A stretch of DNA of 5,728 bases, taken from positions 1-5,728 of IMG/VR virus record IMGVR_UViG_2609459830_000005; one strand, given 5' to 3'. Shown here in pieces: positions 4,392-4,460 of the stretch (its first letter is position 1; every line of letters starts with the position of its first letter). The translations under genes were made by a program, and so were the position numbers. This stretch comes from a virus (Duplodnaviria > Heunggongvirae > Uroviricota > Caudoviricetes). The notes beneath the pieces were generated by a model, which ran no database searches, was not told where the DNA came from, and saw only the letters and a list, made by a program, of their open reading frames with translations.

Positions 4392-4460
4392 CCTCACTGT
4401 GGGGCAATCAAAATTGTCACACCGTGCGTCATTGAAGTCAACCCCACCGTGGGGCATAAT
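4392..4460. promoter_or_regulatory. Divergent back-to-back promoter region with an array of three CACnGTG operator-like palindromes
   Basis: + strand promoter: TTGAAG (4432-4437), 17 bp, CATAAT (4455-4460), driving the Mnt-like gene. - strand promoter: TTGACT (reverse complement of 4436-4441), 17 bp, GACAAT (reverse complement of 4413-4418), driving arc-like and ant. The two -35 hexamers overlap. Palindromes CACtGTG (4395-4401), CACcGTG (4420-4426) and CACcGTG (4445-4451) have centres 25 bp apart. The outer two extend to CCTCAC-T-GTGGGG and CCCCAC-C-GTGGGG. Confidence 0.5.

Follow-up and report, generated by a model that had tools for sequence, protein, structure and literature searches.

What is the function of three short palindromes that lie between two small genes in a lambda-like tail operon? 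The question is raised by a stretch of 5,728 nucleotides of tailed-phage DNA (IMG/VR record IMGVR_UViG_2609459830_000005, positions 1 to 5,728; "the window" is this whole stretch), in which an A+T-rich insert of about 1.7 kb with three genes (ant, an arc-like gene and a 124-aa Mnt-like gene) lies between the tail genes K and L. The palindromes occupy the 123-bp gap from the arc-like to the 124-aa gene. Quite probably they are the operators of an immI-type switch (the mnt/arc/sar/ant kind known from phage P22), carried as a self-contained moron in a lambda-like Escherichia coli prophage. This reading is supported by homology and conservation at the level of sequence: it draws on shuffled controls, on the likeness of the sites to the Mnt operator of P22 (Omnt), on homology of the flanking proteins, on a phylogenetic footprint, and on three-dyad cassettes in distant relatives. 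From the same material we infer binding, the oligomeric states of the proteins, the assignment of proteins to sites, the transcription starts and autoregulation.

The sites themselves are readily defined. The motif CACNGTG occurs at 4395-4401 (CACTGTG), 4420-4426 (CACCGTG) and 4445-4451 (CACCGTG), with centres at 4398, 4423 and 4448 that are exactly 25 and 25 bp apart, as an earlier note on this DNA had described; only two further copies exist among the 5728 bases. That note had also seen the outer two sites as 13-bp near-perfect palindromes, and this holds (4442-4454, CCCCACCGTGGGG, is perfect and 4392-4404, CCTCACTGTGGGG, has one mismatched pair), but the common ending it gave, GTGGGGCA(A/T)AAT, is imprecise, the actual sequences being GTGGGGCAATCA and GTGGGGCATAAT. 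The middle site, correctly placed but listed as a bare 7-mer, in fact belongs to the same 15-bp dyad family as its neighbours: the dyad GNCNCACNGTGNGNC (GNCNCAC-N-GTGNGNC), for which 0.26 matches are expected per window, fits the three sites with 0, 0 and 1 mismatches. Numbered O1 to O3 starting from the arc side, they are:

4391..4405, O1: GCCTCAC-T-GTGGGGC, GCCTCACTGTGGGGC, over the predicted arc-ant start; 0 mismatches to the dyad
4416..4430, O2: GTCACAC-C-GTGCGTC, GTCACACCGTGCGTC, in the predicted arc-ant promoter spacer and -10; 0 mismatches to the dyad
4441..4455, O3: ACCCCAC-C-GTGGGGC, ACCCCACCGTGGGGC, with the perfect 13-bp core at 4442-4454

When the window was shuffled 5000 times with its dinucleotides preserved, three copies of CACNGTG within 60 bp appeared once; 5000 shuffles of only the moron never gave such a cluster. 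Together with the fit to the consensus and the conservation described below, these shuffles exclude a chance origin of the cluster. Elsewhere such sequences are sparse: 25.7 kb of an intact relative prophage held one extra match with one mismatch, which is chance level, and a one-mismatch match within tail gene J of the window (1413-1427, GTCACACCGTGTATC) is probably also due to chance. The 9-mer GGGCATAAT, which occurs both in O3 (4452-4460) and in the terminator of L (4877-4885), was considered as a fourth site or an insertion scar and rejected, because chance alone should yield about one such repeat per 800 bp and because its second copy lies in the flanking L terminator, which is common to unrelated modules.

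Conservation gives a second line of evidence. Relatives were gathered from loci with Ant homologues and from contigs encoding homologues of the Arc-like and Mnt-like proteins, and the resulting sample consists of 13 distinct variants of the same cassette. They come from E. coli prophages, phage TL-2011b, named genomes of Raoultella, Mixta, Pantoea and Yersinia pestis, a Citrobacter-type assembly, metagenome contigs, and contigs with a protein common in Klebsiella pneumoniae records. All 13 keep the three dyads. O1 is the most informative, with 12 different 21-mers among the 13 variants: its half-sites have C-A-C at positions -3 to -1 and C at -5 in 24/24 cases and G at -7 in 23/24 (the remaining one has A), either C or T stands at -6, -4 takes any base except G, and the positions beyond -7 drift freely, as does the linker between O2 and O1. 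Arm changes in O1 can be paired, as in Mixta (GTCACAC/GTGTGAC) and Y. pestis (CCTCAC/GTGAGG). This pattern is the footprint to be expected of a symmetric protein-binding site with the half-site G-Y-C-N-C-A-C. O3 is present in every variant, and the 15-bp dyad of O2 is identical in all of them, the 21-mer around it having two forms only.

The dyads are superimposed on a pair of predicted divergent promoters:

4441..4413, minus strand, predicted arc-ant promoter (the equivalent of P22 Pant): TTGACT at 4441..4436, 17 nt, GACAAT at 4418..4413, with TG upstream of the -10
4432-4460, plus strand, predicted promoter of the Mnt-like gene: TTGAAG at 4432-4437, 17 nt, CATAAT at 4455-4460

Their -35 hexamers lie back to back and overlap by 2 bp, and the predicted starts (about 4406 for arc-ant on the minus strand and about 4467 for the Mnt-like gene on the plus strand) are about 61 bp apart. 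All variants keep TTGAC(T/A), 17 nt and GACA(A/C)T of the arc-ant promoter; in the Mnt-like promoter they keep a -10 of CATAAT or CATACT and a -35 of TTGAAG, TTGATG or TTGCTG. The proposal of divergent promoters with operator-like dyads in an arc/mnt/ant region is backed by homology and conservation, while the mapping of individual sites that came with it needs revision. O1 does cover the arc-ant start region but not the arc-ant -10, which is GACAAT at 4418..4413; O2, which had been placed on the shared -35 region, is actually in the spacer and -10 of the arc-ant promoter; and O3 does fill the 17-bp spacer of the Mnt-like promoter, abutting the arc-ant -35, but reaches the Mnt-like -10 only by its first base. 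A different arc-ant promoter, TTGATT at 4410..4405 followed by TTTAAG, would have put O1 in a spacer. It was rejected because a start at the arc ATG would bypass the AAGGAG ribosome-binding site and because it is unconserved and unlike P22.

How close is this arrangement to that of P22? In the P22 record, Pant (TTGACA, 17 nt, TATATT) is at 14793-14821, the Arc operator (Oarc) is at 14798-14818 inside the Pant spacer, the Mnt operator is at 14822-14844, and Pmnt is on the opposite strand at 14826..14798. The dyad of Omnt, ATAGGTCCAC-G-GTGGACCTGT (GGTCCAC-G-GTGGACC), includes CACGGTG and is centred at 14836, so that the distance from -10 to dyad centre is 14 nt both there and at O1 (4398). Judged by sequence and position, O1 is the counterpart of P22 Omnt. 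O2 takes the place of Oarc by position (its centre is 5 nt from the -10, versus 8 nt in P22) but is of the Mnt-operator sequence type, without the TAGA boxes of Oarc, and O3 has no counterpart in P22. Nor do the two predicted promoters overlap fully as Pant and Pmnt do: only 2 bp of the -35 hexamers are shared, and the predicted starts are separated by about 61 bp as against about 37 bp in P22, the extra 25 bp or so holding O3.

The likeness to P22 immI extends to gene set and order, to homologous Mnt, Arc and Ant, to a sar-like RNA, to overlapping divergent promoters, to the ..CCAC-N-GTGG.. core of the Mnt operator, and to an operator in the Pant spacer. There are also several differences. 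First, the window has three operators of one family, whereas P22 has one Mnt operator and one unrelated Arc operator of the TAGA type. Second, the Mnt-like protein of the window has 124 aa and an unrelated, longer C-terminal domain. Third, the module has lambda-type tail genes L and K as its neighbours, whereas that of P22 is in a P22-type late operon. The parallel with P22 that the earlier note had proposed is supported by the CACnGTG core shared with Omnt, the flanking Mnt, Arc and Ant homologues, and sites conserved across genera.

The proteins and the antisense RNA fit the same picture. The genes that flank the dyads, and the one downstream of the arc-like gene, are:

4498-4872, plus strand, Mnt-like repressor gene, 124 aa, with an N-terminal ribbon-helix-helix (RHH) and a helical C-terminal domain
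4374..4207, minus strand, Arc-like repressor gene (55 aa), which opens the arc-ant operon directly upstream of ant
4134..3214, minus strand, ant, antirepressor, 306 aa (Pfam P22_AR_N, E 9e-45; P22_AR_C, E 4e-29)

The Mnt-like protein matches the Pfam Arc domain (E 3e-7), and its best hit among solved structures is P22 Mnt itself (1mnt; residues 3-43 against 2-42, E 1.5e-3). Its structure model has the RHH pattern followed by long helices at 55-70 and 73-104, and the top fold matches are Arc, AmrZ and CopG with probabilities of 0.9-1.0, the accompanying E-values being weak because the domain is short. In P22 Mnt the tetramer is formed by the C-terminal domain; the last 75 residues of the Mnt-like protein are predicted as long helices and show no sequence relationship to P22 Mnt. 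An hhalign profile comparison gives an ungapped alignment of the Arc-like protein with residues 4-43 of P22 Arc (E 1.7e-4), and relatives of the Arc-like protein carry the NCBI name "Arc family DNA-binding protein". The residues predicted to lie on the DNA-reading ribbon are Q-K-R in the Arc-like protein (Y-Q-R-K-V-R-F-P) and Q-R-R in the Mnt-like protein (P-Q-L-R-I-R-L-P).

Across the arc-ant junction, the elements of a predicted sar-like antisense RNA are:

4103-4208, plus strand, sar-like antisense RNA unit with promoter and terminator hairpin
4103-4131, plus strand, sar-like promoter (TTGATA, 17 nt, TATACT) in the first ant codons
about 4138-4208, plus strand, predicted sar-like RNA of about 70 nt, antisense to the ant ribosome-binding site
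4165-4199, plus strand, terminator hairpin followed by a T run

In P22 the sar RNA is at 15021-15090 with its promoter within the first ant codons, and the TATACT -10 of the window unit falls at the same ant codons. The two-hairpin folds are also comparable (-28.3 kcal/mol, z -5.1, for the predicted RNA; -29.5 kcal/mol, z -5.3, for P22 sar). An Rfam search of the whole window with E values up to 1 gave no match, hence none for the sar-like RNA. As a separate observation, the TL-2011b-type cassette has a fourth operator-like sequence, GCCCCACGGTGGCC, in the loop of its sar terminator hairpin between arc and ant (locus L001, about 3090-3105); the window counterpart at 4183-4195 is only the degenerate GCGCACTGTCGGG, with 3 mismatches.

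Could the palindromes act as nucleic-acid structures instead, as a stem-loop at the 5′ end of the arc-ant mRNA or as cruciforms, or be a mere chance cluster? Chance is already excluded by the shuffles, the consensus fit and the conservation. A structural role has one point in its favour, in that the arc-ant transcript would carry O1 at its extreme 5′ end, where a 5-bp G+C stem could form. However, O3 and O2 are upstream of both predicted starts and would stay untranscribed, the single-base centre prevents a full stem, and the same core is an experimentally defined protein-binding site in P22; we give explanations of this sort very little credence.

A narrower doubt concerns O2. It overlaps the -10 and the TG motif, lies inside an invariant block, and has the least symmetric arms of the three (GACGCAC, GTCACAC), so O1 and O3 might be the only operators, with the middle CACCGTG conserved merely as part of the arc-ant promoter (spacer, TG and -10). 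But promoter spacers normally vary, and the 15-bp dyad of O2 does not vary at all among the 13 variants while agreeing with the consensus at all 10 specified dyad positions. In addition, in the distant contig binned as Armatimonadia the middle site is a near-copy of its neighbours (GGGACCACGGTGGTTC versus GGGACCACGGTGGTCC), and P22 has a real operator at this position. That O2 is not an operator is accordingly improbable in our estimation.

Does the regular spacing carry meaning of its own? The earlier note had read the array as phased and had suggested that RHH dimers or tetramers bind it cooperatively, forming one nucleoprotein complex on both promoters. Both spacings in the window are indeed exactly 25 bp, O3 and O2 keep this distance in 13/13 variants, and the long helical C-terminal domain of the Mnt-like protein could bridge sites. 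Nevertheless, 25 bp is 2.4 helical turns, which puts adjacent sites about 140 degrees apart on different faces of the helix, and neither integral-turn spacing nor abutting repeats at a conserved distance are found. The O2-O1 distance varies even among close relatives (24 bp in 8 variants, 25 bp in 2, 26 bp in 2 and 27 bp in 1), and the spacings are 26/23 in the distant contig, 36/23 in an O157:H7 locus, 36/21 in the viral-contig relatives of that locus and 36/24 in Mangrovibacter. The constant O3-O2 distance is uninformative, being fixed because it lies within the nearly invariant block. Promoter geometry explains the spacing: the two 17-bp spacers, which flank a 10-bp double -35, hold a dyad each, and the third dyad is at +1. 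That the pattern is exactly 25/25 is a coincidence of this layout and no evidence of phasing; in P22, 28 bp separate the centre of the Arc operator from that of the Mnt operator. Cooperative binding deduced from even spacing is thus unsupported, and a phased complex seems unlikely.

Under the immI-type operator reading, a mechanism can be sketched by analogy with P22. There, Mnt holds ant off in the lysogen, while Arc turns Pant down after it has fired and sar limits ant translation (record annotation; Vershon, Youderian, Susskind and Sauer, as listed in PMC2629481). In the window, the RHH repressors would sit on each dyad as two dimers, making a tetramer, and read it with one beta-ribbon per half-site, as P22 Arc and Mnt do. 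A repressor on O1 or O2 would block RNA polymerase at the Pant equivalent and turn arc-ant off; one on O3 would obstruct the Mnt-like promoter and, probably, also the Pant -35, with the same consequence for arc-ant. Occupancy of O3 would also impose direct negative autoregulation on the Mnt-like gene, a prediction made because O3 fills the spacer of the promoter of that gene. P22 differs here, as it is without direct Mnt autorepression: its Mnt raises its own promoter indirectly by silencing Pant. The Mnt-like protein may hold O1 and O3 in the lysogen, whereas the Arc-like protein, made only when the Pant equivalent fires, may bind O2 and cap Ant synthesis, with the sar-like RNA damping ant translation further.

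Several points weigh against the operator reading or against parts of it. (i) The placement of the Mnt-like protein on O1 and O3 and of the Arc-like protein on O2 appears most likely from the positions in P22, but this assignment is weak, because the three sites share one consensus and O2 is unlike the TAGA-type Arc operator of P22, because both proteins carry similar ribbon residues, and because in Mixta O1 has arms of the O2 type with neither ribbon changed. Covariation between ribbon and half-site across cassettes gives a mixed picture: in Erwinia a CCCCAC dyad goes with a V-N-R ribbon in Mnt, and in Mixta the arms differ while the proteins are the same. (ii) The Arc-like protein is only marginally recognisable as an RHH protein. 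Its Pfam Arc match (E 1e-3) scores 19.3 bits, just under the cut-off of 20.4; its AlphaFold2 model is weak, with a predicted local distance difference test score of 67 and no Foldseek match; and comparison with solved structures returned only designed-protein false positives. The assignment rests on Pfam, hhalign and context. (iii) The density of promoter-like matches in the region is at chance level (4 found by consensus scan versus 3.3 expected). Such a scan alone proves nothing, and the promoters are proposed on the basis of conservation and the P22 layout. (iv) The conservation of O2 and O3 is inseparable from that of the promoters, and is uninformative by itself because the block of about 55 bp from O3 through the -35 and O2 to the -10 is nearly invariant in the family. 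(v) The literature searched contained no binding, footprint or transcript data on the cassette, and no prior description of the window cassette or its operators.

The weakness of the site assignment makes room for a serious alternative, which we regard as possible though tentative: both RHH repressors may bind all three dyads in a different order of affinity, much as CI and Cro do at lambda OR. One 15-bp consensus covers all three sites, the predicted ribbon contacts of the Arc-like and Mnt-like proteins are nearly the same, and the Mixta O1 bears arms typical of O2 although both proteins are unchanged. Moreover, the O157:H7-type, Mangrovibacter and Armatimonadia-binned cassettes pair near-identical Arc and Mnt ribbons with three like dyads. 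Likeness of ribbons is no predictor, however, since in P22 the ribbons of Arc (Q-N-R) and Mnt (H-N-R) are similar and yet the operators are unrelated, a point reportedly made by Knight and Sauer in 1989.

Comparison with other known systems helps to place the locus. The lambda array OR1-OR2-OR3 resembles it in having three related dyads between divergent promoters with repressor genes on either side, but this is an analogy only: the lambda repressors have the helix-turn-helix fold, their pairwise cooperativity is documented, and shared recognition is proven there and a possibility here. In MetJ (met-boxes), CopG and the omega protein of pSM19035, RHH dimers read short repeats cooperatively with a beta-ribbon in the major groove. 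The repeats of those systems abut (units of 7-8 bp or one 13-bp element) and neighbouring dimers touch, whereas here there are 15-bp dyads with variable linkers of about 10 bp between them. A further parallel is with the ant morons of P22-like phages, including epsilon34, ST64T and CUS-3 (PMC2629481). Like the window insert, these are ant/arc/mnt cassettes that are self-contained and transcribed separately within a late operon, with a mosaic make-up that varies from phage to phage. The paper on them deals with gene content in P22-like podoviruses, taking its operators from P22, and describes neither the three-dyad cassette nor the lambdoid insertion site between L and K.

Are three dyads peculiar to this family? 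In the Armatimonadia-binned contig, which encodes an Ant of 36% identity, three GGACCAC-N-GTGG dyads surround a TTGACA -35. A Salmonella cassette also has the GGACCAC half-site, its middle and ant-proximal sites being degenerate. Two further classes have three dyads each, CTACAC-N-GTGTAG in the O157:H7 type and CTACAT-N-ATGTAG in Mangrovibacter. The layout is shared by these distant cassettes: three dyads are accordingly common in the immI-like group, and the one-plus-one design of P22 is just one of several. The kind of system is well known (P22 immI-type); the three-site version extends a known design and overturns nothing. Among complete E. coli genomes the operator region is rare, being present in 38/5426, and only 2 have the exact window type. 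Homologues of both repressors are frequent elsewhere in the Enterobacterales, with single protein clusters found on hundreds of contigs in Klebsiella, Enterobacter and Y. pestis.

Several side observations concern the variability of these cassettes. The operator/arc/mnt cassette, like its more distant Salmonella relative, stands ahead of unrelated antirepressor types across genomes (L158-L173): P22_AR_N, Bro-N with P22_AR_C, Bro-N alone, pRha/ANT and KilA-N. Proteins of about 112 to 170 aa combine the Mnt-like N-terminal domain with any of several unrelated C-terminal domains, and the C-terminal domain of the window type is also paired with a different DNA-binding N-terminus (P0138, P0144). 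In TL-2011b the Mnt-like gene is apparently frameshifted after about 9 codons (MSREDPQLR; L001, 3400-3450), and the record annotates only a truncated Mnt-like open reading frame (ORF) without the DNA-binding ribbon; the gene is intact, at 143 aa, in a near-identical E. coli prophage copy (L002). A shortened cassette in an NCBI assembly (L161, about 1380-1500) has the DNA upstream of O2 replaced, so that O3, the -35 and the Mnt-like gene are gone and O2, O1, arc and ant remain. It could serve as a natural test of Ant regulation without Mnt.

What would follow from this? It may be, though we put it forward tentatively, that the locus represents a widespread alternative version of immI: a portable cassette in which paralogous RHH repressors share three operators, with direct autorepression, in a temporal or bistable switch resembling that of lambda OR. 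If so, the portable unit would be an operator-promoter core of about 75 bp plus two DNA-binding domains, and recombination would already have put it before at least 4 unrelated antirepressor families and several Mnt C-terminal domains. Antirepressors allow one prophage to induce others, and they override repressor-based immunity; a switch that silences ant would consequently help to decide prophage stability, including that in the pathogenic E. coli, Klebsiella and Yersinia that carry the cassette. P22 immI is the textbook system for DNA recognition by a beta-sheet. With 12 distinct sequences, the natural variants of O1 amount to a ready-made series for the study of specificity, and the extra site in the repressor's own promoter allows operator sharing by two RHH paralogues to be tested. 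For another E. coli phage, Kapi1, one paper describes the mnt-arc-ant locus as "similar but not identical" to that of P22 and notes that, unexpectedly, its mnt was not expressed.

The surroundings of the insert, finally, are those of a lambdoid tail operon. A Pfam search of the window proteins found lambda-like tail genes, all on the minus strand, flanking the insert, and terminator-like hairpins mark both of its edges:

minus strand, J, N-terminal part, lambda-like tail gene
1847-2524, minus strand, I, lambda-like tail gene
2422-3198, minus strand, K, with JAB and NlpC/P60 domains
3177..3196, minus strand, terminator-like hairpin after ant, left edge of the moron
4863..4880, minus strand, terminator-like hairpin after tail gene L, right edge of the moron
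4889-5635, minus strand, L-like gene

The insert is a complete immI-type module, an "ant moron" in the sense of PMC2629481, placed in a lambdoid tail operon. At its right edge, the last codons of the Mnt-like gene (KKPT and stop) lie inside the L terminator hairpin on the opposite strand (4858-4885). The same L-K position in a prophage of O157:H7 strain 8368 is occupied by a different arc/mnt/ant module with three CACnGTG dyads (L003, 2890-2960), whose half-site is (T)ATCAC / CTACAC, whose spacings are 36 and 23 bp, and whose Arc and Mnt N-terminal ribbons are nearly identical. This unrelated module has an identical KKPT end and identical junction sequence (L003, 3205-3235), which points to a recombination boundary common to morons at the L-K site; the KKPT terminus is also found in many Mnt-like homologues.

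The "L" ORF (4889-5635, minus strand) is a fusion with its junction near 5260. Residues 1-122 match the N-terminus of a tail tape-measure protein (PF06120) and residues 121-246 the C-terminal part of minor tail protein L (PF05100), whereas the intact relative prophage (L004) has tape measure, M and L as separate genes. Most of the tape measure, M and the start of L have therefore gone from the window prophage, which is probably defective. An IMG/VR contig (L078) aligns over the fusion region at 97.7%.

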